64,000 nt of DNA from positions 52,284 to 116,283 of the forward strand of contig CAZRQU010000001.1 in the NCBI GenBank assembly GCA_964602485.1, written 5' to 3'. Source of the DNA: an uncultured Gammaproteobacteria bacterium. GTDB taxonomy: Bacteria; Patescibacteriota; Patescibacteriia; Patescibacteriales; WJLG01. The translations under genes and the position numbers were made by a program. The stretch's first letter is position 1, and the number at the start of each line of letters is the position of its first letter. Shown in pieces: positions 21,601-57,532 of the stretch. The notes below the pieces were generated by a model. It was not told where the DNA came from, did not search any database, and saw only the letters and a program-made list of their open reading frames with translations.

Positions 21601-22242
21601 TTAACCCTTGGCTACGACCATGGCCTTTACTTCTTTAGCTCCGGCTTCCTTGAGTGTCTTTGCACATTCGTTCAAAGTAGCGCCAGTGGTAATAACATCA
21701 TCGATCAGGATAATTCTTTTTTTGAGCAAAAAGAGGCTGTCCCACCGGAAGCAATTTTTTATATTATTTATCCTTCTTTGACGACCGACTTTAGCTTGAG
21801 GGGTGTTATCCTTTATCCTTAAGAGTCCTTTGGACAGCGGTTTTTTATTTAGGCTGGCAATATGTTTAGCCAATAATTCACTTTGATTAAATCCTCGCCA
21901 CCTTTTTTTAAAAGCAGACAAAGGAACCGGCACTAGTTCGTATTTGTTCACATCCAACTCTTTTTTCTTAATGGATCGGCAGAGCATATCTCCGAATATG
22001 TCAGCTATATCAGTAACAAGCCCATATTTCATGGTTTTTATCATTTTTGATATCAGAGGGTTGTCATATTCAAATAAAAAAAACACGCCATTCAGGTATT
22101 TTAAATGGGCGTTATCGGTTATTATTTTCGATCTTGGCTCTAATATGTTCAAGCACTTTTGACATAGCCATTGTCCATCCTTGCCGCAATTCAAGCATTC
22201 TATCGGAAATAAGACATCCTTGATCGACGCTAATAGGTTCAT
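21601..22242 (-). CDS. comFC: ComF family protein (ComFC-like phosphoribosyltransferase)
   Basis: N-terminal zinc finger C..C...C..C. The C-terminus has the PRTase motif ILIDDVITTGATL. Confidence 0.85.
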   Translation of the reverse strand: MNLLASIKDVLFPIECLNCGKDGQWLCQKCLNILEPRSKIITDNAHLKYLNGVFFLFEYDNPLISKMIKTMKYGLVTDIADIFGDMLCRSIKKKELDVNKYELVPVPLSAFKKRWRGFNQSELLAKHIASLNKKPLSKGLLRIKDNTPQAKVGRQRRINNIKNCFRWDSLFLLKKRIILIDDVITTGATLNECAKTLKEAGAKEVKAMVVAKG

Positions 22243-22244
22243 CG

Positions 22245-23507
22245 TTAGTTCAATTCTATCTTATGTAGCCTTTCGGTTGTCTTGTCAGTAAAATAAAGAT
22301 TGCTTTCATCCTCGGATATCATCATTTGACTTATGTTAAAAGCTTTGTCAGGGATAGCTATAAGTTTCTTCATACCTGTTCTGAGGTCTATTTTGTATAA
22401 CTTATCTTGAGTGTTGTCAGCTAACTCGGGAAACATACCCGCTCCTTCGGGGAGCTCTTCAGGAACGGCGCAGTAAACCTGATCGTTATTACCAAAAGTG
22501 CATTTTTCAGCCCAGGTTTCCACTCCTAGGCTGCCCCTGCCGGTTCCGATCGATTCTCCTTGAGCATTGACTATCCATAATTTGGGTTTGAGTTCATCTT
22601 CTGTGGAATATACGCTGTATAGTAGCTTGTCGCCCTCTGTTGACCATTTTGGCTGAAAACCTCGCCCCTCTATGATCGTTGATTTGAAATTCTCTTTATT
22701 CTTTCCCACAAAGAACACTTCCTGCCTATTGAAATCAACTCCTCTAGTGTGCATGGCTATGGTTTGGTCGTTCGGCGACCATGAAGGGTAGACCTTGTCG
22801 GCGTTCTCTCCGATCTTTTCGATCGCCTGACTTCTTGATCCATCAGGGTTGGAGATGGCCAGCCATCTGTTTTCCGGGTCTATACCAATGCTTTTCATAA
22901 CTATTTTATCGCCTTTATCGGAAAATCTAAAATCTTCCCAGTGTTTAGGTAAGGTCACTTGTTTTTCTTGCTCAAAGTCGTAGACGATATTCGATCCATC
23001 CGGATATTCTATTATAGCCTTGCTTTCGGCCGGAGACCAGTTGACCTTATCCACTCCGTAAAATTCCTTTTCTGAAAGCAGAACTTTATTGCCATCTTTA
23101 TCGACCCTATAAAAATGACCATCTTTTCGGTCATAATATCTAAGATCAGAACCGTTATCATGAAGTGAGGGGTTTAGAGTAGGGGATTCGACCAATTCCG
23201 TGGTTCTGGTTACGCCACCCCTGGCTTTGTCATCGATCTCTATTCTCTGTTTGTCCTGACCTTCGGTTATACCGGTTATTACTCTTTCTTCACCCTCTTC
23301 GGTTATGATAACTCCCTCTCCTTCCTCTGCTTCCGGCAAAAGTCCCCCGGGAGTGGTGGTGACTACTTCTTTTTCTCCTGGTATCACTTCCTCGGGTGCC
23401 GTTGCGGGCTTGAAGAAGGTATTATAGATAATAAAACCTATCAGAGCCACTAGAGCCAAGAATATTATTAAAAAAAAGATTTTTTTATATTTTCTCCAAA
23501 AACCCAT
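22245..23507 (-). CDS. Membrane-anchored TolB-like beta-propeller (PD40-repeat) protein
   Basis: N-terminal TM segment. W-SP-type repeats recur (VNWSPAESKAI, YPSWSPNDQTIA, QPKWSTEGDKLLY). Confidence 0.7.
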   Translation of the reverse strand: MGFWRKYKKIFFLIIFLALVALIGFIIYNTFFKPATAPEEVIPGEKEVVTTTPGGLLPEAEEGEGVIITEEGEERVITGITEGQDKQRIEIDDKARGGVTRTTELVESPTLNPSLHDNGSDLRYYDRKDGHFYRVDKDGNKVLLSEKEFYGVDKVNWSPAESKAIIEYPDGSNIVYDFEQEKQVTLPKHWEDFRFSDKGDKIVMKSIGIDPENRWLAISNPDGSRSQAIEKIGENADKVYPSWSPNDQTIAMHTRGVDFNRQEVFFVGKNKENFKSTIIEGRGFQPKWSTEGDKLLYSVYSTEDELKPKLWIVNAQGESIGTGRGSLGVETWAEKCTFGNNDQVYCAVPEELPEGAGMFPELADNTQDKLYKIDLRTGMKKLIAIPDKAFNISQMMISEDESNLYFTDKTTERLHKIELN

Positions 23508-23684: not shown

Positions 23685-24740
23685 ATGGGTTTGTTTTCTT
23701 CAAATGAGGGCTACCTAGGGATCGACATAGGCAGTTTTTCTATAAAATTGGTGGAGTTGGTCAAGAATAAAGGCGAGGTGGAATTATCTACCTATGCTTT
23801 TTCTGAGAACAAGGATATATCTTCTGACTCCAGTCGGTTAAAGGACCCTGAATATATCATAAAGATAATAGAACAGCTTTATCAAAAGTCTGAGGCGACC
23901 AGCAGATCAGCGGTCTCGACCATTCCTTCTTTTTCTGTTTTTTCATCAGTTATAAACCTTCACAATGTCGACAAAAGAGAGATGGGGGAGGCAATAGAAT
24001 GGGAAGCCAAGAAATTGATACCACTCCCTTTGGAGGAGATGGTCTTGGACTGGAAGGTCATAGACGATACAAGTAGCGAGAAGAATAATATAAAGGTTTT
24101 TCTTACAGGTTCGCCCAAAAAACTCATAAAGAAATATGTGAACATTTTTCGTCGCACTCAGCTTGATCTTCTAAGTTTGGAAACTGAGAGTTTTTCCTTG
24201 GTCAGGGCCTTGGTGGGCGATGATAAGTCTACTATGATGATAGTTCAAATGGGGGCCAGTAATACCGACATATCAGTTGTTCAAAAAGGCATACCGATAC
24301 TGAATAGAAGTATAGATGTTGGAGGGTTGAGTATAACGAAAGCGATCAGTGGTAATTTGAATGTCGGTTTGTATAGAGCTGAACAATTCAAAAAGGATAT
24401 GGGGATGAACACTGAAAAAGCAGCTGGCGGAGTCATCCCGAAGACCATCGCCAGTTCTATAAATCCGATAATAAACGAAATAAAATACCTTTTGAATCTT
24501 TATAAGAATAGCAGTTCAGGCAGAGAAGGTAGTGGCAACGTTGAGAAGATAATATTATCCGGAGGGTCGGTCATGTTGCCTAACTTCGCCGACTATCTGT
24601 CTGATAATCTTAATATGAATGTCATAATAGGCGATCCTTGGGCCAGAGTTTCGTATCCCAAGGAATTAAAGCCCGTATTGGCCGAAACAGGACCTAGTAT
24701 GTCCATAGCTATAGGTTCGGCCATTAGGGAAATAGAATAA
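23685..24740 (+). CDS. pilM: Type IV pilus assembly protein PilM (actin-like ATPase fold)
   Basis: Contains GIDIGS.SIKLVEL, an FtsA/PilM-like architecture, and leads the pilN/pilO-like genes. Confidence 0.9.
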   Translation: MGLFSSNEGYLGIDIGSFSIKLVELVKNKGEVELSTYAFSENKDISSDSSRLKDPEYIIKIIEQLYQKSEATSRSAVSTIPSFSVFSSVINLHNVDKREMGEAIEWEAKKLIPLPLEEMVLDWKVIDDTSSEKNNIKVFLTGSPKKLIKKYVNIFRRTQLDLLSLETESFSLVRALVGDDKSTMMIVQMGASNTDISVVQKGIPILNRSIDVGGLSITKAISGNLNVGLYRAEQFKKDMGMNTEKAAGGVIPKTIASSINPIINEIKYLLNLYKNSSSGREGSGNVEKIILSGGSVMLPNFADYLSDNLNMNVIIGDPWARVSYPKELKPVLAETGPSMSIAIGSAIREIE

Positions 24741-24742
24741 TT

Positions 24743-25699
24743 ATGGATTTCGCCTCTTTTTTCAAAAATAATAAGAATAGCGGACAAGCCCCTGATTCTC
24801 CGTCAGGAGAAAGTGTTTCACAAGAAGGGCAGGGTGGGGATGAGAAGAAGATGGATTTTTTAAAGGGTGTTGAAGATGAAGGGATCGATACGACCCCGAT
24901 AAGAAAATCGTCCAAAAGCCGTTTGAATGATATGTTGATATCTCCTCCGCCTGAGGGGCCGGCTGATCCTGGCCAGGACGACGAAGATAGCAATGATCAG
25001 GATACCGAGCCCAAAAAGAATGAATCAAGGGTGTCTCCGCCTAAGAAGCCAAAGAAAAGTTTTTTTTCCGGTCTTTTAAGCAAACTTAAAAATAAAAGCG
25101 ACAAAGGGGGACTTTTAGGAGGCAAGGGTGGTGATGTTCTTGAGGTTAACTTGGTCAAAGATGAGATAATAAAATTCTTTGATTGGCAGAAGAATATTTT
25201 GTTTTTGTTCTTAGCCATATTCGCTTCTTTGTTCATTCTTACTATAGCTTATTGGGGCATTTCATGGTGGGGCAATCGCATGCAGGTGGAAAAGGATCAG
25301 TTCTTGGCTCAAGATTATTATCGTTTGAATAAGCAGATAAGGGAGTTAGAGCCGAAGATAGAGGAAGTATCCAGGTTCCAGCATAAATTGGATATGGTCA
25401 ATCATCTTTTGGACGATCATATATATTGGACCAACTTTTTCGATTTTTTGGAAAAGAACACCTTGGAAGATGTTTACTTCTTTGATTTTAGCGGTGATAC
25501 CAATGGTTCATACAACCTGGGTGGCCGAGCTCGTTATTTTGAGGTGCTTGATGCTCAAAAAAAGAAATTCCTAGAAGATGATCGAGTTACTTCTGCGCAG
25601 ATAAAGAGTGGCAATGTGGTCTCGGGCGGAAAAAAGGAATCTCCAGGCGTAGCTTTTAATATAACCTTTTCGGTTGATCCGGAAATATTCTATAAATAA
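24743..25699 (+). CDS. PilN-like bitopic protein with a disordered N-terminal extension of about 135 aa
   Basis: An EVNLVKDE motif (compare the PilN INLLP motif) lies about 15 aa before the single TM segment, followed by a coiled coil. It sits in the pilN position after pilM. Confidence 0.6.
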   Translation: MDFASFFKNNKNSGQAPDSPSGESVSQEGQGGDEKKMDFLKGVEDEGIDTTPIRKSSKSRLNDMLISPPPEGPADPGQDDEDSNDQDTEPKKNESRVSPPKKPKKSFFSGLLSKLKNKSDKGGLLGGKGGDVLEVNLVKDEIIKFFDWQKNILFLFLAIFASLFILTIAYWGISWWGNRMQVEKDQFLAQDYYRLNKQIRELEPKIEEVSRFQHKLDMVNHLLDDHIYWTNFFDFLEKNTLEDVYFFDFSGDTNGSYNLGGRARYFEVLDAQKKKFLEDDRVTSAQIKSGNVVSGGKKESPGVAFNITFSVDPEIFYK

Positions 25700-25704
25700 T
25701 AATT

Positions 25705-26361
25705 ATGGCCAAAGACACAGCCAAAGAAAAAAAAGAGATAAGGAAGCTGGAAAGAAGAAAGGCGCTTATAAAGAATGTCAATGAATTCTTGGATAATAAT
25801 TTCAAGTGGTTCATTATTTTGGTTGTGGTGATCATTTTATTGTCCGGTTATTTTTTCTTATTGAAGCCGAAAAGAGAGAGCTCAGAGAAGATGTTGAGGG
25901 TGATCAATCAAAAAAGGGAGGAAGATTACTATAACAAAAAAGAAGAACTCAAAAAGATAAAAGACCTTTTATTGGTCTATTCGAGAATAAGTTCTTCGTA
26001 TATAGACAAGATAAACTCTATTGCTCCTCCTGACATAGATGACCTGTTCACAGAGATGAACCAGCTTATTTCCAATCAGGGGCTTTTCGTGCAATCGCTC
26101 AATATAAACAAAGTAAATATTAGAGATCCTAAATTAGCTAAAAAGAACAAGAATGATCAGGAGTATAGTGAAGAGATAGGCGGAATAAAGGTCTCTATAA
26201 GCGTTAGAGGTACTGATTATGAAGCTTTTAAAAATCTACTGCATTCATTGGAGAACAATCTTAGGCTGATAGATGTTGAAAGGGTTGATTTCGATCCCAA
26301 GAGTCAATCCACTAAATTGTTGTTATCCACTTATTATACAAAAAAGAAAGATAAAAAATAA
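25705..26361 (+). CDS. PilO-like bitopic protein
   Basis: Short basic N-terminus, one TM segment, a coiled coil and a C-terminal alpha/beta region. It sits in the pilO position. Confidence 0.55.
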   Translation: MAKDTAKEKKEIRKLERRKALIKNVNEFLDNNFKWFIILVVVIILLSGYFFLLKPKRESSEKMLRVINQKREEDYYNKKEELKKIKDLLLVYSRISSSYIDKINSIAPPDIDDLFTEMNQLISNQGLFVQSLNINKVNIRDPKLAKKNKNDQEYSEEIGGIKVSISVRGTDYEAFKNLLHSLENNLRLIDVERVDFDPKSQSTKLLLSTYYTKKKDKK

Positions 26362-26364
26362 ATT

Positions 26365-26634
26365 ATGAATTCTAATGTAGGGAAGATAATTATATATTTT
26401 TTGGTTATAGGTTTTATAATAGCTTTTTTGATATACTTCTATAATAGCTTGGCGACCGATGATGTTGGTAAGGATTTTATAGAAATAAAGACAAGATCCA
26501 CCAAGACCAACATCAGAGAAGATATAAATTTGGAATTACTGCAAGAGCAAAAATTTATAAACTTGCAGAGCAATAGTAGTGAGCGAGCCGTCTTCAAGGC
26601 CGGCAAAAGAAACCCCTTTGAACCTTACGATTAA
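26365..26634 (+). CDS. Small bitopic membrane protein (89 aa) in the pil operon
   Basis: N-terminal TM segment (IIIYFLVIGFIIAFLIYFY). It occupies the slot between pilO-like and pilB. Confidence 0.45.
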   Translation: MNSNVGKIIIYFLVIGFIIAFLIYFYNSLATDDVGKDFIEIKTRSTKTNIREDINLELLQEQKFINLQSNSSERAVFKAGKRNPFEPYD

Positions 26635-26669
26635 GAGAAAGTATTTAAATACGCAACCTTTTTTGAAAT

Positions 26670-28445
26670 ATGCCAGATGCAAAAGAAAATTTATTGGATC
26701 TCTTGTTGGAGCACAAGATAATAAATGAAAAACAGTATAAGGATATAGCTGGAAAGGCCAAAAAGAGCAACAGAAAAGTGGAGGATATATTGGTGGAGAG
26801 GGATATAATGAACATAGAAGAGGTGGTGAGGTTCAAGGCCAGAATATACAACATTCCTTATCAGTACATAGAAGAGAGCAAAATAACAGAAGAGGCTTTG
26901 AATGTTATTCCTTTTGAGGTGGCCAAGAATTATTCCATAGCCTGCTTTGAAAAGACTGATAACAAGATCAAAGTGGGAATGATAGATCCTTATAATTCAA
27001 AGGCTATAGAAGCTGTTAATTTTTTGGTCAAGGAACAGGGGTTGGTAGCTGAGTTCTACCTGATATCAAAGGATAGTTTGAAGAAAATATTCGATCGTTA
27101 CGGCAATCTGGAAAAAGAGATATCGAGTGCCTTGGAGTCCAAGGCGCAAGAAGAGCATAAAGACACTAAAAAAGAAGAAGGATCGGAGGATGTGGAATTA
27201 TTTTCTTCGGGCGAGGACATATCAGAAGCTCCGGTGGCCAGGATAGTTTCGGTGATAATCAGGCATGCGGTAGAAGAAAACGCCAGTGATATACATATAG
27301 AGCCAATGCAAAAGGAAACCAGGGTCCGCTATCGTGTAGATGGTATATTAAGAACATCCTTGGTTCTGCCTAAAAGCATACACAATTCAGTAGTTGGTCG
27401 TGTGAAGGTTTTGGCCAGAATGAAGATAGATGAGACCAGAGTTCCGCAAGACGGCAGGATAAGACTGGTGATAAACAAAAAACAAATAGACTTCAGGGTC
27501 TCGACCATGCCTCTTATGGGTCAAGAGAAGGTAGTGATGAGAATATTGAATCTTGGTAAAGGTATACCTAAATTGGAAGAGCTGGGATTTTCTAGTAATA
27601 ATTTGAGGATAGTCAGTAGGAACATGAAAAAGACCTTCGGACTTTTATTGGTTACCGGGCCTACTGGATCCGGTAAGTCAACTACTTTAGCTTCTGTACT
27701 AAATATACTCAACAAAGAGCAGGTCAACATAGTTACTTTGGAAGATCCTATTGAATATTATGTAAAAGGGGTCAACCAGTCACAAATAAAACCCAATATC
27801 AATTATAGTTTCGCTAATGGGCTAAGGTCGATCTTGCGTCAGGATCCCGATATAATCATGGTCGGTGAGATCCGTGATAAAGAAACGGCCGAATTGAGTG
27901 TTAATGCCGGTTTGACCGGTCATTTCGTTCTTTCCACTTTGCATACCAATAATGCTTTGGATGCCATTCCTCGTCTTCAAGATATGGGGGTGGAACCCTT
28001 TTTGTTAGGGTCGACCTTGAACACTATTATTGCCCAGAGACTGGTAAGAAAAATATGTCCGAACTGTAAAAAAGAGGTCAAAATAGACCCTAATCTCATA
28101 GAAGTGGTCAAAAAGGAACTTAAAGAAGTGCCGGAAGAATTATTACAAGAAAGAACAAGCGGTATATCAGGATTTGATGTGAATAGTCTGGATGAAGCTG
28201 TCTTTTATGAGGGGGAAGGATGTTCTCATTGCGGTAATACCGGCTATAGCGGAAGAACGGCCATTCTTGAGCTTATAGATATAAACGACAATATCAAGGA
28301 GGTGATCATGGATAAGTCCAGATTATTGAAAAAGAAGGATATACAGCAGGATCAGGGCTTCATAACCATGAAACAGGATGGGATAATAAAATGTTTACAA
28401 AGTTTGACCACCATCCAAGAGGTCTTAAGAGTCGTTCAGGAATAA
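26670..28445 (+). CDS. pilB: Type IV pilus assembly (extension) ATPase PilB/GspE family
   Basis: All motifs are canonical: Walker A GPTGSGKST, Asp box LEDPIEY, Walker B DPDIIMVGEIRD, His box TGHFVLSTLHTN, and a tetracysteine CPNC...CSHC. Confidence 0.95.
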   Translation: MPDAKENLLDLLLEHKIINEKQYKDIAGKAKKSNRKVEDILVERDIMNIEEVVRFKARIYNIPYQYIEESKITEEALNVIPFEVAKNYSIACFEKTDNKIKVGMIDPYNSKAIEAVNFLVKEQGLVAEFYLISKDSLKKIFDRYGNLEKEISSALESKAQEEHKDTKKEEGSEDVELFSSGEDISEAPVARIVSVIIRHAVEENASDIHIEPMQKETRVRYRVDGILRTSLVLPKSIHNSVVGRVKVLARMKIDETRVPQDGRIRLVINKKQIDFRVSTMPLMGQEKVVMRILNLGKGIPKLEELGFSSNNLRIVSRNMKKTFGLLLVTGPTGSGKSTTLASVLNILNKEQVNIVTLEDPIEYYVKGVNQSQIKPNINYSFANGLRSILRQDPDIIMVGEIRDKETAELSVNAGLTGHFVLSTLHTNNALDAIPRLQDMGVEPFLLGSTLNTIIAQRLVRKICPNCKKEVKIDPNLIEVVKKELKEVPEELLQERTSGISGFDVNSLDEAVFYEGEGCSHCGNTGYSGRTAILELIDINDNIKEVIMDKSRLLKKKDIQQDQGFITMKQDGIIKCLQSLTTIQEVLRVVQE

Positions 28446-28446
28446 T

Positions 28447-28842
28447 ATGGATAACAAGAAGAGAAAAATATTATTGGTTGAAGATGATCCCTTTTTTATA
28501 GATCTGTATTCTGCTAAACTTAAAAAAGGAGGTTTTGATGTGGCGGTGGCGGATGATGAGAGGGAAGGTTTTGAAAAAGCCATCACCGAGAAGCCGGAGG
28601 TCATTCTTTTGGATATAAGTTTGCCTGAGCATGAGGATTTTTGGTTGTTAAAGAAGATAAAAGACAATAAAAAGACCAAAGATGTGCCCGTGATGGTCTT
28701 GAGTGATCTTACTAATGACAGCGAAATAGCTAAAGCTTTTTCTTTCGGGGCTTGTGATTATCTGGTTAGATCACAGATAGTTTTCAGAGAAGTGATAAAC
28801 AAGATAAATAGTAATATTAAAAAAGAGGATAAAAAGGATTAA
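28447..28842 (+). CDS. Stand-alone response-regulator receiver domain (CheY-like), atypical
   Basis: The LLVEDD acidic pocket and the LLDISLP phospho-acceptor context are present. The conserved Lys of the (Y)xxKP motif reads DYLVRS. Confidence 0.8.
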   Translation: MDNKKRKILLVEDDPFFIDLYSAKLKKGGFDVAVADDEREGFEKAITEKPEVILLDISLPEHEDFWLLKKIKDNKKTKDVPVMVLSDLTNDSEIAKAFSFGACDYLVRSQIVFREVINKINSNIKKEDKKD

Positions 28843-28843
28843 T

Positions 28844-29896
28844 ATGGAAATAAAATCCGCCTTATTAAAAAAAGTGTTGCCGCAAATGGCGCAAAGGAAG
28901 GCCTCTAGTCTTCACCTATCCGTTGGTAGTGCTCCTATGATGAGGATATATGGGAGGTTGGTGTCATTGGATGAAGAGGGGGTTATGAAAAGGGACGATA
29001 TAGAAAAAGTAGTCCAATCCTTCATAAAAGAAGAAGAAGTTTTAGAGTTAAAGAAGAAAAGAGAGGTTCTTATGGTTAAGGATTTTGGAGATGATCTGCG
29101 TTTTCGGGTTAATATTTTTTTCCAAAAGAACAACCTTTCCGTATCTTTTAGTTATATCTCTGAAGAGATAAGGGGTTTGGATAGCTTGGGTTTGCCGGAA
29201 ATATTCAAAAAGAATATAAGCTCCAACTCCGGACTTTTAATAGTTGCCGGGCCGAACGATTCTGGTAGGACTTCCACCATAGCCAGCCTGGTAGAAAAGA
29301 TAAATCTTGAAGAGAAGAAATTCGGCATTACCTTGGAGAAGCCAATAGAAAGATTCTTTGTCAACAAACAGAGTATAATAGATCAAAGGCAGGTGGGTTC
29401 TGATGTTAATTCTTATGTTGATGGCCTTAAACATTGCTTGGAGGAAGATGTTGATTTTGTTTATATAGATGAGATAAAGGATGGATTTGAAGATGCTTTA
29501 CCTTTTATACTTGAACTGTCCTCTGGTAATTGTTTGGTGATAATAGAAGTTAACGGAGAAAGCTCTATTAGAGTATTGGAGAAGATATTGAATACGAATT
29601 GTAGTAATTTTTCACGTGAATCCATACGTTTCTTGTTAGCTGACGTCCTTCTGGGTATAATAGTTCAAAGATTGATCCCTAACCAAAGTGGAGACCTTTC
29701 ACTGGCTATAGAGGCGTTATTATCCAACTTTGCGGTAAAATCTCTTATCAGGGAAGGAAAGATATATCAATTAGAGAGCGTTATCCAGAATTCGGCTGAA
29801 GAGGGAACAGTAAGCATGGAAAAATCCATAAAAGAATTGATAATTTCCGGCAAGGTGGATCCCGGAGAAGTGGAGAATATCAATTTAGAGATATAA
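28844..29896 (+). CDS. PilT-like hexameric ATPase homolog with degenerate catalytic motifs
   Basis: It aligns with PilT without gaps across the ATPase core. Walker A is GPNDSGRTS (canonical GPTGSGKST), the Asp box is LEKPIE (EDPIE) and the His box is SGNCLVIIEVN (TGHLVFGTLHT). Confidence 0.8.
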   Translation: MEIKSALLKKVLPQMAQRKASSLHLSVGSAPMMRIYGRLVSLDEEGVMKRDDIEKVVQSFIKEEEVLELKKKREVLMVKDFGDDLRFRVNIFFQKNNLSVSFSYISEEIRGLDSLGLPEIFKKNISSNSGLLIVAGPNDSGRTSTIASLVEKINLEEKKFGITLEKPIERFFVNKQSIIDQRQVGSDVNSYVDGLKHCLEEDVDFVYIDEIKDGFEDALPFILELSSGNCLVIIEVNGESSIRVLEKILNTNCSNFSRESIRFLLADVLLGIIVQRLIPNQSGDLSLAIEALLSNFAVKSLIREGKIYQLESVIQNSAEEGTVSMEKSIKELIISGKVDPGEVENINLEI

Positions 29897-29899
29897 TTT

Positions 29900-31105
29900 A
29901 TGCCAATATTCAGTTATAAAGCTTTAGATTTTCGCGGAAAAAAGGTCCAAGGGATGGTCAATGGCTTCAACAGAAGCGCGGCCGCGGAAGCCTTGAGCGA
30001 AAGAGGATATGAGGTCCAGTCTATCACTGATAAGACGGATAGTTTGGAATTGAAGATACTGATGATGATCAATCCGGTGAAGACCAAAGATCTGGTGATC
30101 TTTTCCAGACAATTTTCGGTAATGATATCTGCTAATTTAGCCTTGGTGCAATCTTTAAAGATAGTGGCTGAGCAAACAGAGAACATAACTCTAAAATCAG
30201 TGATTTCCGAAGTGGCTTATGAAGTTGATAGCGGGGCATCATTGTCCAGTGCTTTGGCGAAAAGATCCAAGATCTTTTCGGATTTCTATGTGAATGTCGT
30301 TAAGTCAGGTGAGACTTCAGGTAAATTGGATGAGGTTTTGACCTATTTGGCAGACGAAATGGAAAAGGATCATGATATGATAAGCCAGATCAAGGGAGCT
30401 ATGATATATCCGGCTTTCGTTCTTTTTGGGTTGACTGTCGTTGGTGCCATAATGATGATAGTTGTAGTCCCTAAGTTAACTGATATATTGGAACAAACCG
30501 GAGGCGATCTGCCAATGACCACTCAGATAGTGATGGCTATATCAGGGTTTTTGGTGAATTATTGGGTGTTGTGTTTGATCTTGTTGATAGCGGCTATAAT
30601 AGGCTTGAGATTTTATATAGCCACAGATCAAGGAAAAAGGTATTTTGATATGATAAAATTGAGATTGCCTGTTTTTGGTAAGTTGTTCAGGCATATCTAT
30701 ATGGTTCGTTTCACCAGATCCATGGACACTTTGATCTCAGGAGGGGTTAATATAACCAGAGGACTTGAGATAGTTGCTGACGTTATAGGTAACGAGGTTT
30801 ACAGGGATATAATCAAAAAGAGTGTCAAAGAGGTCAAAGAAGGTAATCCTTTGTCTTCCGTGTTCGAGAATAGCAGGGAGGTTCCCAGAATGATACCGCA
30901 AATGATAAATGTGGGTGAAAAGACCGGTAAGTTAGATCTGGTCCTAAGGAAGATATCCGATTTTTATACCAGGGAGATCAATAATACTTTGGACAATTTG
31001 GTTACTTTGTTGGAGCCAACTATCATGATAGTCATGGGTGTGGCCGTAGGTGTTATGGTGGCAGCTATAATTATGCCTATGTATAATTTAGCTAGTCAAT
31101 TCTAG
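29900..31105 (+). CDS. pilC: Type IV pilus platform protein PilC (GspF family)
   Basis: 401 aa with a duplicated GspF domain, three TM segments, and the N-terminus MPIFSYKALD..G. Confidence 0.93.
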   Translation: MPIFSYKALDFRGKKVQGMVNGFNRSAAAEALSERGYEVQSITDKTDSLELKILMMINPVKTKDLVIFSRQFSVMISANLALVQSLKIVAEQTENITLKSVISEVAYEVDSGASLSSALAKRSKIFSDFYVNVVKSGETSGKLDEVLTYLADEMEKDHDMISQIKGAMIYPAFVLFGLTVVGAIMMIVVVPKLTDILEQTGGDLPMTTQIVMAISGFLVNYWVLCLILLIAAIIGLRFYIATDQGKRYFDMIKLRLPVFGKLFRHIYMVRFTRSMDTLISGGVNITRGLEIVADVIGNEVYRDIIKKSVKEVKEGNPLSSVFENSREVPRMIPQMINVGEKTGKLDLVLRKISDFYTREINNTLDNLVTLLEPTIMIVMGVAVGVMVAAIIMPMYNLASQF

Positions 31106-31154
31106 ATAGTCGGTCTTTGCACTTTTTGTATGTTGATCATCTCAGGTACATCGT

Positions 31155-31649
31155 ATGTCAATATTGATAGATCCTTTTAATAAGGATAAAAATAAAAAAG
31201 AAGGCGTTTCTATGAGAATGAAAAGTATAGCGATAGTTATAGTTGCCTTTATAGTTGTTCTGGGTCTTTCCTTTTTTTGGCAAAATTCAGATAGTAATAA
31301 AAGGGATAGAACTAGGTTAAACGACCTAAAAGAGGTGAGGGAAGCCTTATTCTTCTACTATAATGAGAATGGATACTATCCTTCTTCGATATCAGATTGG
31401 AACACGGACAGGCTCGATTATGGGGCCGACCCTAGGACGGGTTCCAGTGATTATGATAATTTAGCCTCTTTAATATCTCACAGAATATCAAAACTGCCCA
31501 AGGATCCGCTGAATAAGGCCAATAGTCCGACTGTGAACAAGAAATATCTTTATCGTTATGTTTCCAGTCCAGATGGTCAAAATTTCGCTATTATATATGA
31601 AACAGAAGAGCCTAACGATGAATCTCCTATGATCATGGAGGGATGGTAG
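31155..31649 (+). CDS. Pilin-like protein lacking a class III (prepilin) signal
   Basis: NKRDRTRLNDLKEVREALFFYYNENGYYP parallels [30 protein letters not shown] in PilA. The N-terminus is an ordinary hydrophobic helix with no G/FTLIE motif. Confidence 0.5.
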   Translation: MSILIDPFNKDKNKKEGVSMRMKSIAIVIVAFIVVLGLSFFWQNSDSNKRDRTRLNDLKEVREALFFYYNENGYYPSSISDWNTDRLDYGADPRTGSSDYDNLASLISHRISKLPKDPLNKANSPTVNKKYLYRYVSSPDGQNFAIIYETEEPNDESPMIMEGW

Positions 31650-31699
31650 CCAAAAAAAACAAGAGGTGAGCGAATAGTGGGTATTTATAGGTGTAAGTG

Positions 31700-31728
31700 T
31701 TGTTTGCTTTTAGCTTGTGTGTTATAAT
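31700..31728 (+). promoter_or_regulatory. Sigma70-type promoter for pilA (TTGTTT - 17 nt - TGtTATAAT)
   Basis: Extended -10 at 31720-31728. It shares TGTGTTATAATTAT with the pilM promoter. The leader is about 85 nt and ends in the strong SD GAGGAGGTG. Confidence 0.55.
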
Positions 31729-31818
31729 TATAATATACAAATAATTATTTATCTAAACCCCCATGTTCCACGTTAGCGAATATGAGCTGATGTGGATATG
31801 AGAGAGAGGAGGTGAGCT

Positions 31819-32253
31819 ATGAACAAAAAAGGTTTTACTTTGATCGAATTGCTGGTCGTTATCGCTATTATAGGTATATTGTCGACGCTTTCCGTAATAG
31901 CCCTTAATAACGCTAGGCAAAAATCAAGAGACGCTAGGCGGGTAGCTGACATGAAGCAGGTACAAACCGCTTTAGAGCTTTACTACAATGATGAGAATGG
32001 TTATCCGGGAACTGTCACTTTTAACGGAACGTCAGCTATTGTTGGCCCGACCAACTCCACTACCTATATGGCTGTGGTCCCGCAAAATCCCCAGCCGTGG
32101 GATGATGGGAGTTGCGGTAACTCCAACTATGTCTATAACGCTTCTTCCACAGGAGCTAGCTCTTATTATATAGACTATTGTTTGGGTAGCGACACCGGAG
32201 GAATTGGTGCTGGAGACCATAATGCCACACCAGCAGGAATAGCAGATCCATAA
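31819..32253 (+). CDS. pilA: Type IV major pilin (prepilin with N-terminal methylation motif)
   Basis: [21 protein letters not shown] is a canonical class III signal. A GGAGG SD lies 7 nt upstream. Confidence 0.92.
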
Positions 32254-32286
32254 AATTCTTAAAAGGCCTGTTAAGAAATTTTTAAG

Positions 32287-32313
32287 GAAGCGGTTTATCC
32301 CGCTTCTTTTTTT
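32287..32313 (+). terminator. Rho-independent terminator after pilA
   Basis: GAAGCGG-tttatc-CCGCTTC followed by T7. Confidence 0.8.
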
Positions 32314-32408
32314 ATATTGAGAGTTCATATTCTTGTAGAGTTATAAGATGTTAATTTTGTATTTTTTAAACCAAATTAACTATTAGAACTTTGTTTGCTT
32401 GATAATTG

Positions 32409-32417
32409 TGATATAAT
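32409..32417 (+). promoter_or_regulatory. Extended -10 element TGaTATAAT ending 8 nt before the ATG at 32426
   Basis: Read directly. The spacing implies a leaderless or near-leaderless mRNA if the element is used. Confidence 0.35.
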
Positions 32418-32425
32418 TTTAATAT

Positions 32426-34498
32426 ATGGATGATCTAAAGGAAAAAACAGTAAGGGCTAGCGATCATTTGACGGAGTTCTTATTTTTATCCGTTGTTTTT
32501 ATATTGCCTTTGGCATTTTCTTGTTTTTTTTGGAACTTTGATGTTTTTGGGTTATTCAAGACATCTATTTTTAGAGGTTTTTCATCCTTGGTTATCTTGT
32601 CTTTTTTGTTCAATGTCTTGGTTAAAGGGAGGTTAAGGTCCATAAAAAATAAGGGAGCGGTCTTATTTTCATTCTTTTTGTCATTGTCTTTTCTTCTCTC
32701 AACTGTCTTTTCAGTAGATCCTATTGTTTCGTTTTGGGGTGTTTATGGTAAATATCAGGGGTTTTATACCTTAATATCTTATATAGTATTATTTTTATTT
32801 TTACTTGTTTGGCTTAAAGGGCATGGGCAGATAAAAAGGATAATAATAACAACAGTGATATCGTCTTTGTTGGTTTGTGTTTATGGCCTGATCCAATTGT
32901 TTGGTTGGGATATTGCTCCTTGGAAAGAAGCAGCAGAAGATACGGGCAGGATATTTTCTACTATGGGGCAGCCGAATTTTTTAGGACATTTTTTGGCAAT
33001 GATGATCCCTTTGACCGTTTATTATGCTTTTTTTGAGGTAGGGAAAGCGAGTTTGCGCCTACCGCTGTTGGTATTATCTATCCTGCAGCTGGTTTGCCTT
33101 TTTTTTACTTATAGTCGGGCGGCCTGGGTGGCCTTATTGTTGTCAGGTTTGTTATTTTTGGTCCTTTATCTTTATTTAAAAAAGGGACGGCGGGCAGGCA
33201 GTATATCCGTTATTGTTATATTTGTCTTGTTAGCGTCCTTAGTATCTGTTATCGCATTTGAAATTTTGCCTGAACCAAGAACTAGTGATCCTTTGTTAAA
33301 GAAAAAGGTTCTAGGTCTTTTTGATATTGATTCCGGATCAATAGGCTCAAGAACTGGTTACTGGAAAGCTTCCATAGAAGAGATATCAGAGGCATCTTTT
33401 CCAAGAAAGGTTTTTGGATATGGACCTGATGCTATAAGCGATGTGTTCTTTAGAAGATATGAAAGTTCTTGGTCTATCAGCGAAAGACTGGGAAGATTCC
33501 CTCAAAGGGCTCATAATTCCTTTTTGGACAATGTTTTGCAATTCGGTTTTTTTGGCTTGGCCGTTTGGGCGATCTTTGCTTTGTACATCATTAGAAGGAT
33601 ACTCCGTTATTTAAAAGAAAAGAAAGGGGACAGGTATTATGCGCTGGTTCTTGCTTTATCTTTTTGCCTGGCGGTTAATTTTTTCAATGGTCTTTTTAGT
33701 TTCTCTCTGGTCGTTAATAGCGTTTATTTTTATTTGTTGCTTGGCTTATTGTTTTATTGTCTGGATAATGACGGAGAAGACAGGGTTTGGAATATCTCTT
33801 GGCCTAATTGGCTTAGAGTTGTGGTTGTTTTTCTTTTTTTAATCCTTTTTTCCACAATGGTCTTTTACCATGATATCCGCCCTTTGAAAGCAGACCACCA
33901 TTATATGCTTTCTATAAAATTCGATAATAAGAAAGATCATTTTCGATCTTGGTATCATATGCGACAAGCAGTCATTCTTGATCCTGATAATAAGCATTAT
34001 CTGTACAGTTTTTTTTCTAAGTCAGTAGAGAACTTAAAAAGGATGGAAGCGGGCGATATGAGAGATGAGGTCGCTCAGGCTGTTTCTTTCTTGACCGATG
34101 GTTTTTCAACCGAGTATAAGGATCTAAGATACTCCTTGAGCTTAGCGGCAGCCAAAAGTGTTCTTGGCTATTATGGTTATATCGATAAACAAGAGGCTGA
34201 TTTGGAATATATAAAGTTAATGGATAGGTATTCTGAGGTTAGCGCTGTTTATAAATATTATGGATTTTTCAATATTAAGATAGGAGAGTATCTTAAGGCT
34301 ATCGATGCTTTAGAAAATGGTATTGACCTTCTACCCCCCTTGAGTGAATTGGAGCAAGATACCGAACGAAAACAGGCCGTGGTTTCCGAGCTGGTTGATA
34401 TGTATGAAGGACTGGTTAAGGCCTATGAGAATGTGGGAGAGCAGGAGAGGGCAGATGATTACGATAGAAAGAAAAGATCATTGATAGATGATCTTTAG
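32426..34498 (+). CDS. O-antigen ligase / Wzy_C-family polytopic membrane protein with a C-terminal TPR-like domain
   Basis: Contains YSRAAWVALLLSG and a periplasmic loop with RAHNSFLDNVLQFGFFGL, typical of Wzy_C (WaaL/PglL/TfpO). About 12 TM segments and about 200 aa of helical repeats. Confidence 0.72.
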   Translation: MDDLKEKTVRASDHLTEFLFLSVVFILPLAFSCFFWNFDVFGLFKTSIFRGFSSLVILSFLFNVLVKGRLRSIKNKGAVLFSFFLSLSFLLSTVFSVDPIVSFWGVYGKYQGFYTLISYIVLFLFLLVWLKGHGQIKRIIITTVISSLLVCVYGLIQLFGWDIAPWKEAAEDTGRIFSTMGQPNFLGHFLAMMIPLTVYYAFFEVGKASLRLPLLVLSILQLVCLFFTYSRAAWVALLLSGLLFLVLYLYLKKGRRAGSISVIVIFVLLASLVSVIAFEILPEPRTSDPLLKKKVLGLFDIDSGSIGSRTGYWKASIEEISEASFPRKVFGYGPDAISDVFFRRYESSWSISERLGRFPQRAHNSFLDNVLQFGFFGLAVWAIFALYIIRRILRYLKEKKGDRYYALVLALSFCLAVNFFNGLFSFSLVVNSVYFYLLLGLLFYCLDNDGEDRVWNISWPNWLRVVVVFLFLILFSTMVFYHDIRPLKADHHYMLSIKFDNKKDHFRSWYHMRQAVILDPDNKHYLYSFFSKSVENLKRMEAGDMRDEVAQAVSFLTDGFSTEYKDLRYSLSLAAAKSVLGYYGYIDKQEADLEYIKLMDRYSEVSAVYKYYGFFNIKIGEYLKAIDALENGIDLLPPLSELEQDTERKQAVVSELVDMYEGLVKAYENVGEQERADDYDRKKRSLIDDL

Positions 34499-34516
34499 AG
34501 AGGGCGAATAAGGACA

Positions 34517-35407
34517 ATGTTTAGCTTGTACAAATTTTTTAGACACTTTATGGATAAAAAAAATGTAAAATATAATATCTCTGCTTGTGTGGTGGTTTGT
34601 AATGAGGAAGAGGTCATAACCAGATGTCTTGAGAGTATAAAAGAAGTAGTGGATGAGATAAACATTCTTCATGATGGCCCATGTTCTGATAAGACTATTG
34701 AAATAGCTCGTCGGTATACTGATAATATATATATGATGGAGAAGAAAGGTTCAGCTCAGCCTCATCGAGCTTATAGCTACGAGATATCAGCTGGACCCTG
34801 GATACTGCAGATCGATGCCGATGAATTTTTGAGCGTTGAAGCGATCGATGATCTTAGGCAATTGACCAAGAATGATAGGGTAAGCGCTTATGAATTATTG
34901 TGGCCTTTGTGGGATGGGCAAAAGCGTTTATCTAGCCAGTGGCCTTATAAGCTTTGTTTGTTCAAGAAAGATGATATATCTTATATAGGGCTTCCTCATT
35001 TCAAGCCTTTAGTAAAAGGAAGGGTAGAGAGGCAGGGGGTTGTGCTAGAACATAGGCCGCGATATAATAATTTCAGTCGAGAGAAATTCTTTGAAAAATG
35101 GTTATCTTGGGCCAGATTGCATGCCCGGTCCTACCTAAAGGATTTTTCCCAAATACCCAAATTCAATTACTCGGGAAATGATTGGCCTTCCAAGATGGCT
35201 CTTAGGAGACGTTTCCCTTTACTCCTTATACCTTTTGAGTTTCTTATCACCTTCATTAAGGATGTAAGGGTTTTACCTTTGAGACATCTGTTGATATCTT
35301 TGAAAGTAGCCTTTATGTATGCTTGTTATCGAGTAGCTGTCAATTATTATGTATTCAAATATAAAAATATCGATCGTTTTAGCTTAAAGTCCGAAGATCG
35401 AAGCTGA
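34517..35407 (+). CDS. Glycosyltransferase family 2
   Basis: Contains ISACVVVCNEE, a DG.SDKT region and QIDADEF (DxD), the GT2 pattern. Confidence 0.82.
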   Translation: MFSLYKFFRHFMDKKNVKYNISACVVVCNEEEVITRCLESIKEVVDEINILHDGPCSDKTIEIARRYTDNIYMMEKKGSAQPHRAYSYEISAGPWILQIDADEFLSVEAIDDLRQLTKNDRVSAYELLWPLWDGQKRLSSQWPYKLCLFKKDDISYIGLPHFKPLVKGRVERQGVVLEHRPRYNNFSREKFFEKWLSWARLHARSYLKDFSQIPKFNYSGNDWPSKMALRRRFPLLLIPFEFLITFIKDVRVLPLRHLLISLKVAFMYACYRVAVNYYVFKYKNIDRFSLKSEDRS

Positions 35408-35528
35408 CTGCTTTTTTAAAGAATAGGATTTCCGATCCAATATTGGAATTTTTGATCGTAAAATAGGTGTTTGCAATATGTATAAAAAATTTGAACACTT
35501 CGTTAAATAAGATCAAAGTAATTTTTTT

Positions 35529-36326
35529 ATGATATATTTATTTTCTTTTTTTATTTTTTTGATAGGGTTGATAATGGGGAGTTTCCTTAATTGTTTGATA
35601 TGGCGCATCCATCAAGGTGAGAGTACCTGGGATCGCTCTTACTGCCCTAAATGCAAGGGAAAGATAGCCTGGTATGATAATATACCCGTTCTAAGCTTTT
35701 TATTGTTAAGGGGTCGTTGTCGTAAATGCCGTAAAGCGATATCGGTTCAATATCCTTTAGTGGAACTAGCAATGGGGATCCTTTTTGTTTTAGCTTTTTT
35801 CCATAAGGTATCCGAACCGTTCTATTTTGATCTTTCTTATCCTCTTGAAAGCTTGCCTTTGTTATCCCTGGTAAGGGATTGGCTGATAATCTTCGTTTGT
35901 TTGGCTATTTTGGTCTATGATTGGCGTTGGTATATAATACCGGATATCATAATATTACCAGCCGTGGTGATCATTTCGATAGTCAATATTGCCATAGGTG
36001 GGGAATTCTTGGATATACTTTGGCCGGCCCTTATCGGCGGGACCTTCTTCGCCATTCAGTTTTTCGTCTCTCGCGGAAAATGGATAGGTGGTGGTGATGT
36101 TCGTTTTGGCGTATTTATGGGAGTAGCCTTAGCTGACTTGAATCTTTTGATAGTGGCCCTTCTTTTGGCTTATTGGAGCGGTGCTTTGGCCGGGGTTGCA
36201 CTCATGGCTTACAAGAAGAAAAAATGGACCAGCCGTATGCCTTTGGGTATATTTTTGTCTTTGGGAACTGTTTTGGCCCTATTTTTGGGTAAGAGTATGA
36301 TAGATTGGTATTTTGGCCTCCTTTAA
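35529..36326 (+). CDS. pilD: Prepilin peptidase / N-methyltransferase PilD (peptidase A24)
   Basis: Contains CPKC...CRKC, WYDNIPVLSFLLLRGRC and GGGDV. Confidence 0.93.
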   Translation: MIYLFSFFIFLIGLIMGSFLNCLIWRIHQGESTWDRSYCPKCKGKIAWYDNIPVLSFLLLRGRCRKCRKAISVQYPLVELAMGILFVLAFFHKVSEPFYFDLSYPLESLPLLSLVRDWLIIFVCLAILVYDWRWYIIPDIIILPAVVIISIVNIAIGGEFLDILWPALIGGTFFAIQFFVSRGKWIGGGDVRFGVFMGVALADLNLLIVALLLAYWSGALAGVALMAYKKKKWTSRMPLGIFLSLGTVLALFLGKSMIDWYFGLL

Positions 36327-55939: not shown

Positions 55940-57532
55940 ATGAAGCCAGTAGTTTTTCTTATGCTTTTCGCGAGCATGTCTTTTGGGGGGATCTTTGGGA
56001 ATGGGGCGGACAAAGCCCTGATCGAAGATCTCTCAACTGATGTTGATTCACTCTCTTCCCAGCTCTCCGATAAGGAGTGGGAGCTTGAATTGGCCGAGGC
56101 GGCTAAGAGGGAAGCTGCGCTGGCCAAGGATCGCCTATTAAGGGAGATCGGTGGTTACAAGACCACTATTGAGTCCCTGCAGGTCTCTTTGGCCGCAAGT
56201 GGCCGAGAATGCCGAGAGCTTTCGGCTTATGCCAAGCTGCATGAGAAGCGGCAGAAGGTCAGCGTAGTGGAAAGGCTGGGTCTATCTCCGGTTCATAATG
56301 GACCTCCGGAAAGCTACTTGACCGATCCCCGAGTGAAAGCTCGGATCAAGAAGACCATTAAGGCAATGCCGTTGATACCCGAGCTTGAACAAGCGTTCAT
56401 AGCTCAGGTCGACACGGCCGCGCCGACTACCGGTAGGCTAGACAATGGGCTATATGAATTCATGGGTTTTTCCAAGTTCAGATACTTGGGTTATACCTAT
56501 GTAGCCCTGGATTCGACTGCTGATGATTATGCCTGGACTTTTCCTCCGGTTGATGCTTGGGGAAGAAAGGCGCAATTGACCATTCCGTGGGCATGTTTTA
56601 ATCCCACGATCAGATGGCTTTTGGCTGACACGGTCATCCAGAGGGATACCGTGAAGGTGGATAGCATAATCGAGATCAGGGTGGAATCACCACCCGATAC
56701 GGTAGTTAGGGACAGTATCATCATTGATACCATCTGCCCGCCTCCGGAACCTCCTCAGGATAAGAAGCAAAGTCGTTGTAAATGGGGAGAGCTGTTCATG
56801 TGGTTGGGGCATTATTCTCCGGTCCCTCATCTTGATGAGGGCAGGGGGGAATTCCTCGGTTCCATGGGAGAGGTCTTCTTCGGATGCAGTCGGACCAATT
56901 TTGGCCTTGGTTATTATGCCAATGGTTGGGACTGGAAGACATATTCCGGCAGATCGAGCGGCTTTGAGGCTGCCGCTGGTCCGGCGCTCAACTTTGCTTG
57001 GCGCAGGGCCAGACTGATGTTGTTTGCGTACTATGACATTGAAGGGTCGTGGTTCGAAAGCGATCATCAGGAGGATGTGTATACGTCCCGCCAGTGGTCT
57101 CACTCGGTGTATCCGGGCCTGACCTTCAGTGTCTGGTCAGCCGATGGAGACCGGTGGTTCGAGTCTTGGCTGAACTCCCAGATAATGGTTGAGGGCTACA
57201 AGCTCTCACACGTTGACGGGCAAGTTCAAAGCAGGGAAAATGACCCTGCAAATGACAAGACTTGCATCTTCTTCGGCTCCCGGCTATTTCCGTTTTCGGG
57301 ATTCGGGGTCGATAAGAAAATGCACCTTGGCTTTTCGGCCAAGGTGTCCCACACTCTGGAAGATGAGCGGGTAGAGCTGATCCTGGGTCCAGTCATCGAC
57401 ATAAACCATGTTCTCAAACTCTCCTTTGATTGGAAGGGAACTTTCAATTCTCAGTGGGAGAAAGAGAACGGCAATTCAGTGGGGGTCGTTCTGGATCTGG
57501 ATGTCGTCAATGCAGTCAATCGAAACAGGTAA
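55940..57532 (+). CDS. Exported protein: signal peptide, coiled coil and a C-terminal beta-barrel-like region (530 aa); first gene of the GC-rich island
   Basis: AAAAAGGAGG SD lies 6 nt upstream. The N-terminus MKPVVFLMLFASMSFGGIFG is hydrophobic. The last 230 aa or so show alternating aromatic/hydrophobic beta-strand patterns. Local GC is about 52%. Confidence 0.6.
   Translation: MKPVVFLMLFASMSFGGIFGNGADKALIEDLSTDVDSLSSQLSDKEWELELAEAAKREAALAKDRLLREIGGYKTTIESLQVSLAASGRECRELSAYAKLHEKRQKVSVVERLGLSPVHNGPPESYLTDPRVKARIKKTIKAMPLIPELEQAFIAQVDTAAPTTGRLDNGLYEFMGFSKFRYLGYTYVALDSTADDYAWTFPPVDAWGRKAQLTIPWACFNPTIRWLLADTVIQRDTVKVDSIIEIRVESPPDTVVRDSIIIDTICPPPEPPQDKKQSRCKWGELFMWLGHYSPVPHLDEGRGEFLGSMGEVFFGCSRTNFGLGYYANGWDWKTYSGRSSGFEAAAGPALNFAWRRARLMLFAYYDIEGSWFESDHQEDVYTSRQWSHSVYPGLTFSVWSADGDRWFESWLNSQIMVEGYKLSHVDGQVQSRENDPANDKTCIFFGSRLFPFSGFGVDKKMHLGFSAKVSHTLEDERVELILGPVIDINHVLKLSFDWKGTFNSQWEKENGNSVGVVLDLDVVNAVNRNR

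Follow-up and report, generated by a model that had tools for sequence, protein, structure and literature searches.

PilT-like ATPases are described as a family in which two arginine fingers, the Walker motifs A and B, the catalytic glutamate and the Asp-box glutamate are completely conserved and in which the His-box histidine coordinates the γ-phosphate of the nucleotide (PMC5424180). R286 of GmPilB coordinates the γ-phosphate as well. Competition of PilB with PilT for the same socket of the pilus machine is stochastic (PMC11656802), and PilT that is defective in ATP binding or hydrolysis keeps partial function (PMC6762196). In Patescibacteria, type IV pili are regarded as central for attaching to hosts, for movement and for DNA uptake; the one experimental study, on Saccharibacteria, reports a PilT with conserved Walker A and B boxes (PMC11623550). 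Here we describe a 64-kb stretch of patescibacterial DNA from contig CAZRQU010000001.1 (the window), in which the pilT position of a type IV pilus operon is occupied by a gene for a 350-residue protein with the PilT fold and a remodelled catalytic site. We refer to this gene as pilT' (28844–29896, plus strand) and to its product as PilT'. It is preceded by a gene for a single-domain, CheY-like receiver. Coordinates are positions in the window, and residue numbers refer to PilT' unless another protein is named.

PilT' matches PilT from Aquifex (PDB-entry 2ewv) with an E-value of 4e-48. In the first-pass annotation of this DNA the alignment to PilT had been described as gapless across the ATPase core. 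This is the case from residue 8 through the Walker B motif, after which HMMER places two one-residue insertions. The profile TIGR01420 (pilT_fam) is covered from position 2 to 330 out of 343, with a score of 243.6 bits that lies under its cutoff of 319.1. An AlphaFold2 (AF2) model calculated from 115 family sequences reached a mean predicted local distance difference test (pLDDT) of 91.4 and a predicted template-modelling (pTM) score of 0.89. A Foldseek superposition of this model with GmPilT4 resulted in a TM-score of 0.87–0.88 and a root-mean-square deviation of 2.2–2.5 Å over approximately 340 columns. PilT' thus comprises the two domains of PilT and has neither the N-terminal domains nor the zinc-binding cysteines of PilB.

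The motif columns were read in three ways, from HMMER pairwise alignments, from a MAFFT alignment with two PilT sequences from the PDB and from a profile hidden Markov model (HMM) built from canonical PilTs only. All three gave identical columns, and the residues were confirmed by translation. The Walker A motif (29249–29275) reads GPNDSGRTS, as first reported, where canonical PilTs have GPTGSGKST; Lys142 is replaced by Arg, while the P-loop glycines and Thr143 are kept. The canonical-only HMM recovered neither a canonical Walker A lysine nor a His box. Arginine finger 1 is kept as R88, which corresponds to R271 of GmPilB (numbering mapped via PDB chain 6olj). The loss of arginine finger 2 had been overlooked: in SFSYI, which aligns with the canonical ALRSL, Arg is replaced by Ser103 (codon 29150–29152) at the position of R286 in GmPilB and R98 in GmPilT.

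The Asp box (29336–29350) is EKPIE instead of EDPIE. The exchange of Asp166 for Lys stands as annotated, but both glutamates (E165 and E169), including the one that binds Mg, are retained, and the exchanged position is not the Mg ligand. Glu200 occupies the position of R195 in GmPilT, the partner of the Asp-box aspartate, so the charges of Lys166 and Glu200 may have been swapped; among the closest homologues this pairing is not the rule. The Walker B motif (FVYIDEIKD, 29456–29482) was over-called as a lost signature. Its letters, IDEIKD for the canonical VGEMRD, are correct, but the catalytic Glu210 is kept and the exchange of Gly for Asp209 recreates a classical hhhhDE motif, which is normally absent from PilT-like ATPases (PMC5424180). 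The reported loss of both His-box histidines is real, although the register given for it was off by one: the canonical ETGHLVFGTLHT aligns to SGNCLVIIEVNG (29522–29557). In the correct register T221 is replaced by Gly228, the first histidine H223 by Cys230 and the γ-phosphate histidine H230 by Asn237, and the segment carries two new conserved residues, N229 and E235. Further downstream, AVKSLIRE (29732–29755) is a variant of the PilT-specific AIRNLIRE helix that matches it in five of eight positions and is kept within the family.

Among 5.8 billion proteins searched, 3145 homologues had E ≤ 1e-10, and the best 120 clusters (48–100% identity) were used for all counts within what we call the window family. 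All 120 share the remodelled site. Their His-box equivalent has the consensus [SA]-G-N-[SCT]-L-V-I-L-E-[MIV]-N, with G228 in 119, N229 in 118, E235 in 119 and N237 in 112 clusters. Since the substituted positions are themselves 93–99% conserved, constraint at this site has been shifted and not lost. Position 103 is occupied by Asn (52), His (31) or Ser (25), and the arginine finger to the γ-phosphate is absent throughout the family. Position 209 is Asp in 75 clusters and Gly in 29, and the catalytic Glu210 is kept in 105. At position 142, eight clusters have Arg, with at least four independent origins.

For a wider comparison, 1.84 billion cluster representatives were searched. The window family turned out to belong to a much larger set, from which 72 representatives with both histidines, which we took as canonical, were compared with 77 without a His box. 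The departure of PilT' from the canonical state was borne out, the altered sites being 100% conserved in the canonical set (72/72), but within its own family Walker A Lys is the rule (112/120). R88, R103, K142, E165, E169 and E210 are each present in all 72 canonical sequences, and D166 and R200 in 71. The 77 sequences without a His box have either Lys (44) or Arg (31) at position 142; the catalytic Glu is found in 34 of them, arginine finger 2 in 43 and D166 in 23. E165 and E169 are each retained in 76 of the 77, and the P-loop glycines in about 60 of 61 aligned single-domain members.

A sister family, the P0141 group, comprises 118 clusters from Patescibacteria including Kerfeldbacteria. It has Arg in Walker A (86/118), E[KR]PIE in the Asp box (86/118), Arg for the first histidine (111/118) and Asn for the γ-phosphate histidine (78/118). 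Arg142 and EKPIE, the two states of PilT' that look most unusual, are thus the consensus of the sister family. In a neighbour-joining tree of 112 sequences all degenerate sequences grouped together in 83 of 100 bootstraps and the window family in 95. Judged by this tree, monophyly of the degenerate clade is moderately supported, the method leaving long-branch attraction possible. A canonical clade that includes receiver-carrying loci appeared as the sister of the degenerate clade with a bootstrap of only 10–15%. On the basis of its sequence we place PilT' in a large clade of PilT-like proteins from Patescibacteria. Scanning a genome collection with the family alignment gave, among the matches listed, canonical PilTs throughout (28–36% identity), and these serve as canonical controls. 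Several proteins of 700–1000 residues among the closest canonical relatives (P0128–P0132, P0136, P0137 and P0140) show two stretches that match PilT' in HMMER, one of them covering ~330 residues at the C terminus; tandem fusions of PilT with PilT are a possible reading.

PilB of the same operon provides an internal control. To obtain related loci, flanks of up to ±6–10 kb were taken around each homologue gene, and a metagenome scan with a central family member gave about five usable family loci. PilB had been said to keep every motif, which is true of the window and of each of the 12 related loci whose pilB is complete. GPTGSGKST, the two arginine fingers, EDP[IVM]E, VGEIRD and TGH...[LI]HT are invariant there. 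In 18 other Patescibacteria loci, including Saccharibacteria, Berkelbacteria, Parcubacteria, Wolfebacteria, Kaiserbacteria and Peregrinibacteria, PilT itself is fully canonical. Because PilB is canonical in the same operons and PilT elsewhere in the phylum, the degeneracy reflects neither compositional drift nor a phylum-wide trait. The earlier statement that it is not lineage-wide drift holds to this extent, but among PilT homologues encoded within these operons the degeneracy is clade-wide.

The receiver gene (28447–28842, plus strand) encodes 131 residues and matches PF00072 with E = 1.6e-16 (60.9 bits against a gathering score of 30.2). The receiver has the acidic pair Glu12-Asp13, the phospho-acceptor Asp56 and the switch residues Ser86 and Tyr105; Arg108-Ser109 are found at the usual lysine site at the end of β-strand 5. 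An intact Asp pocket with RS in place of a KP motif had been noted and is confirmed, but the exchange is a trait of a subclade (L006, L087, L097 and P0122–P0124) and Lys-Pro occurs in no member of the family, which mostly reads DY[LI]IKAHF and keeps the lysine followed by alanine. The diversity of the receivers was taken from the fetched loci; a homologue search with the receiver gave seven matches. The CheY variant K109R can be phosphorylated and signals weakly. In agreement with the first-pass annotation, no HisKA or HATPase_c domain was detected in window ORFs (open reading frames) of at least 250 residues, nor did any gene called around the related loci encode one.

Upstream DNA was available for 15 distinct related loci (L002, L004, L006, L087, L088, L089, L091, L093, L097–L100, L102, L103 and L104). 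In all of them the receiver gene lies directly upstream of pilT' and the order pilMNO-pilB-receiver-pilT'-pilC is kept. Together they cover the degenerate clade in its full breadth, one member being located on an 877-kb contig. The co-conservation of receiver and pilT-like gene, which the first-pass annotation had proposed to test, is thus found throughout, yet degenerate PilT is not the only neighbour of this receiver family: in L009, L010, L060 and L081, four further loci from Patescibacteria, a homologous receiver gene separates pilB from a fully canonical pilT. The pairing is therefore older than the degeneration or independent of it. In the window, the spacers between pilB and the receiver gene and between the receiver gene and pilT' are 1 nt each (TAA-N-ATG), and the one between pilT' and pilC is 3 nt. 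In L004, alone among the related loci, a small 23S_rRNA_IVP gene (PF05635, 11056–11448 in L004) is inserted between pilT' and pilC.

Selection on the operon was judged by comparison with locus L102. Since synonymous sites (dS) were saturated, only the ranking of the nonsynonymous divergence (dN) was used. The value for pilT' is the lowest of the operon (0.091, 85% amino acid identity), followed by pilB (0.159, 77%), pilC (0.175, 74%), pilM (0.181, 72%) and the receiver gene (0.217, 66%). pilT' is under strong purifying selection.

Based on these results we propose that the active site of PilT' has been remodelled such that ATP turnover is not under selection, and that the protein acts as a nucleotide-binding, poorly hydrolysing switch or plug under the control of the receiver; we put the probability of this reading at about 0.5. 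An invariant scaffold, variable catalytic and γ-phosphate-binding residues and strong purifying selection together suggest that binding and docking are selected and turnover is not. PilT' very probably still binds Mg-nucleotide and assembles into a PilT-type hexamer, to judge from its sequence, because the PilT fold, the P-loop glycines, the Ser/Thr of Walker A and the Mg-binding glutamates of the Asp box are kept. Hydrolysis would be inefficient with both γ-phosphate sensors gone, arginine finger 2 and the His-box histidine (now Asn), and with the Walker A lysine changed to Arg in the window lineage. The nucleotide-bound hexamer would compete with PilB for the socket formed by PilC and PilM. 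Its docking would end extension and let the pilus retract slowly, with weak power or with none. The receiver, whose gene is translationally coupled, would bias which hexamer engages according to its phosphorylation state, perhaps by direct contact. A regulatory pseudo-ATPase module, as it had been suggested in the first-pass annotation, is thus supported in part, in that catalytic residues vary while the nucleotide and Mg scaffold is fixed across the clade; the contrast that was drawn there to a retraction motor is inferred.

Several points weigh against the proposed switch. The window family keeps the Walker A lysine in 93% of the clusters, the catalytic Glu in 88% and the Walker B Asp in 62%, together with Thr143, a pattern to be expected of a family in which most members have remained ATP hydrolases. 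At the His position, Asn237 could contact the γ-phosphate in the manner of sensor 1. That Arg142 abolishes hydrolysis is assumed from the general behaviour of P-loops. The receiver may touch PilB, PilM or PilC rather than PilT', and its family accompanies canonical PilT too.

The main rival is a genuine ATP-driven retraction motor with a non-canonical active site, which we regard as possible. The changes would then be lineage-specific chemistry, with Asn237 in a sensor-1-like role, Asp209 coordinating Mg and Arg142 or other basic residues as substitutes. pilT' fills exactly the operon slot that canonical pilT has in other Patescibacteria, it is strongly selected, and T143, E165, E169 and E210 are retained next to the 93–99% conserved G228, N229, E235 and N237. 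The new basic residues of the sister family (Arg for H223 in 111/118, Lys or Arg for the Asp-box Asp in 86/118) and the preserved AIRNLIRE-like helix would also suit a motor. Across the clade, however, more than half of the cluster representatives lack the catalytic Glu and Lys and Arg alternate freely in Walker A, which a committed hydrolase should not tolerate; in canonical PilTs the Glu and the Lys are fixed (72/72). The missing γ-phosphate arginine finger of the whole window family points in the same direction, and so does the H229A variant of Pseudomonas aeruginosa PilT (PaPilT), which is non-functional (PMC6858323).

It appears unlikely that PilT' is an adaptor or accessory paralogue which functions only alongside a canonical PilT or PilU from another part of the genome, on the model of Bdellovibrio PilT1/PilT2 or of the dependence of PilU on PilT. 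There are precedents: an in-operon PilT1 without Walker A coexists with a canonical PilT2 encoded elsewhere in Bdellovibrio (PMC4237445), and ATPase-dead PilT supports PilU-dependent retraction (PMC6762196). Orphan canonical pilT genes do exist in the phylum, since L041 and L047, on Patescibacteria or Peregrinibacteria contigs, carry canonical pilT with neither pilB nor pilC in the fetched flanks. No second PilT, PilB or receiver is encoded in the 64-kb window, however, and a second PilT-like gene is absent from the ±6–10 kb around every related locus. The cultivated Saccharibacterium TM7x is moreover reported to have a single PilT, encoded in the main operon (PMC11623550).

That pilT' is a decaying pseudogene, or its odd residues an error of sequencing, assembly or alignment, was suggested by the joint loss of several canonical residues and by a pilT' homologue split into two ORFs on the short metagenomic contig of L091 (464–1515, frameshift or assembly error), but we reject this as extremely improbable, because an identical protein is encoded in the independent assembly L001, relatives with 85% identity hold the same motif states, dN is the lowest of the operon and the three alignment methods, including the profile, agree, with an intact ORF of family-typical length and a confidently predicted fold in addition.

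Returning to the proposed switch, we extend it only tentatively to the phylum. In much of Patescibacteria the motor of the core operon might have been replaced by a PilT-derived pseudo-ATPase and a dedicated receiver, which together would form a phospho-regulated nucleotide switch in genomes that contain no canonical PilT; retraction would then, in these ultrasmall cells, be gated and not driven by ATP. In terms of sequence, the pseudo-ATPase in question has Arg or Lys in Walker A, lacks the His box and often lacks the catalytic Glu or an arginine finger.

The remaining genes belong to a single plus-strand type IV pilus operon at 23685–36326. It starts with pilM (23685–24740; PilM_2, E = 2.8e-43), followed by pilN-like and pilO-like genes and a small ORF (24743–26634) in the pilM-N-O order of the related loci, and by pilB for the fully canonical extension ATPase (26670–28445; T2SSE, E = 5e-126). 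Downstream of pilT' lie pilC for the platform protein (29900–31105; T2SSF, E = 5e-61) and two pilin or pilin-like genes (31155–31649 and 31819–32253), the second with an N_methyl match and both in positions kept in the related loci. They are followed by genes for a Wzy_C-family membrane protein (32426–34498), a GT2 glycosyltransferase (34517–35407, GT2 match) and a prepilin peptidase (35529–36326), the last identified by phmmer matches to PilD homologues of related loci that carry PF01478; all of them are encoded on the plus strand. Among named organisms, the nearest relatives are metagenome-assembled genomes of Candidatus Falkowbacteria and of the "Patescibacteria group".

Upstream of pilM, two divergent genes on the minus strand encode a ComF-family protein (21601–22242; TIGR00201, E = 1.6e-29) and a β-propeller-like protein of 420 residues (22245–23507). 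The propeller gene is likewise placed in L002, L006, L097, L098 and L102, and a ComF-like phosphoribosyltransferase gene is also present in L006. These neighbours link the operon to DNA uptake. The Wzy_C protein, which is O-antigen-ligase-like, follows the pilins in the window as well as in the majority of those related loci whose downstream DNA reaches far enough, and in the relatives it often has TPR repeats. It is a candidate enzyme for pilin glycosylation. A second Wzy_C gene (59324–60703, plus strand) is located together with two GT4 glycosyltransferase genes at 59–63 kb. Nearly all genes of the window are on the plus strand, a strong strand asymmetry over the whole 64 kb, and the GC (guanine-cytosine) skew is positive in all 2-kb bins except 22–24 kb, the site of the two minus-strand genes. 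An ORF of 530 residues without a Pfam match (55940–57532, plus strand) lies in the sole GC-rich stretch (0.52 compared with 0.36–0.44 elsewhere).

Full-text literature searches gave no description of a degenerate PilT clade, of a receiver in the pilus operon or of a pseudo-ATPase in Patescibacteria, so the clade is apparently undescribed; databases label its members "twitching motility protein PilT" or "PilT/PilU family ATPase". Taken at the level of sequence, the clade contradicts a statement in the literature by which every family member conserves the histidine of the His box, and represents a natural, strongly selected exception. If its members are nucleotide binders and not motors, twitching or powered retraction, as predicted from the genomes of many Patescibacteria, would have to be reconsidered, and a natural system would be available in which the docking or switching role of PilT is separated from its role as an ATPase. 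The conserved pilB-receiver-pilT order suggests a simple and testable circuit by which pilus dynamics are controlled in organisms whose signalling genes are very few.

Among the described systems, canonical PilT (Aquifex 2ewv, Geobacter PilT4 6ojx, P. aeruginosa 3jvv) has the same two-domain fold, length and slot between pilB and pilC as PilT', and shares with it the RFR arginine finger 1, the P-loop glycines, the Asp-box glutamates and the catalytic Glu; a helix similar to AIRNLIRE is present in PilT'. PilT' differs from it in Arg142, Ser103, the Asp-box Lys, the Glu at the R195 equivalent, the Walker B Asp, Gly228, Cys230 and Asn237. PilT1 of Bdellovibrio bacteriovorus (Bd1510) likewise lacks catalytic signatures and is encoded in a pilB-pilT-pilC operon; its authors proposed regulation or stabilisation as its role (PMC4237445). 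Its Walker A motif is described as wholly absent and a canonical PilT2 is present in the genome, whereas the P-loop of PilT' is intact but for the exchange of Lys for Arg, the clade of PilT' is very large and a receiver gene is always adjacent. In Vibrio cholerae and P. aeruginosa, an ATPase-dead PilT hexamer can aid retraction as an adaptor without binding or hydrolysing ATP on its own (PMC6762196). PilU, its partner, has canonical motifs, relies on PilT and is encoded by the gene that directly follows pilT; the window operon has no such partner, and with its degenerate motifs and no adjacent pilT we rejected an identification of PilT' as PilU. Stand-alone receivers that steer the choice or site of pilus ATPases are known from PilG and PilH of the Pil-Chp system, from the PATAN regulators of Synechocystis, which bind PilB1, and from EpsW of Myxococcus xanthus, the last being among the NCBIfam matches of the window receiver (E = 9e-12). 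These regulators are parts of chemosensory systems whose kinases are known, and their genes do not lie between pilB and pilT, whereas the window receiver has no kinase nearby, carries Arg for the conserved Lys in its subclade and sits between the genes for the extension ATPase and for PilT'.

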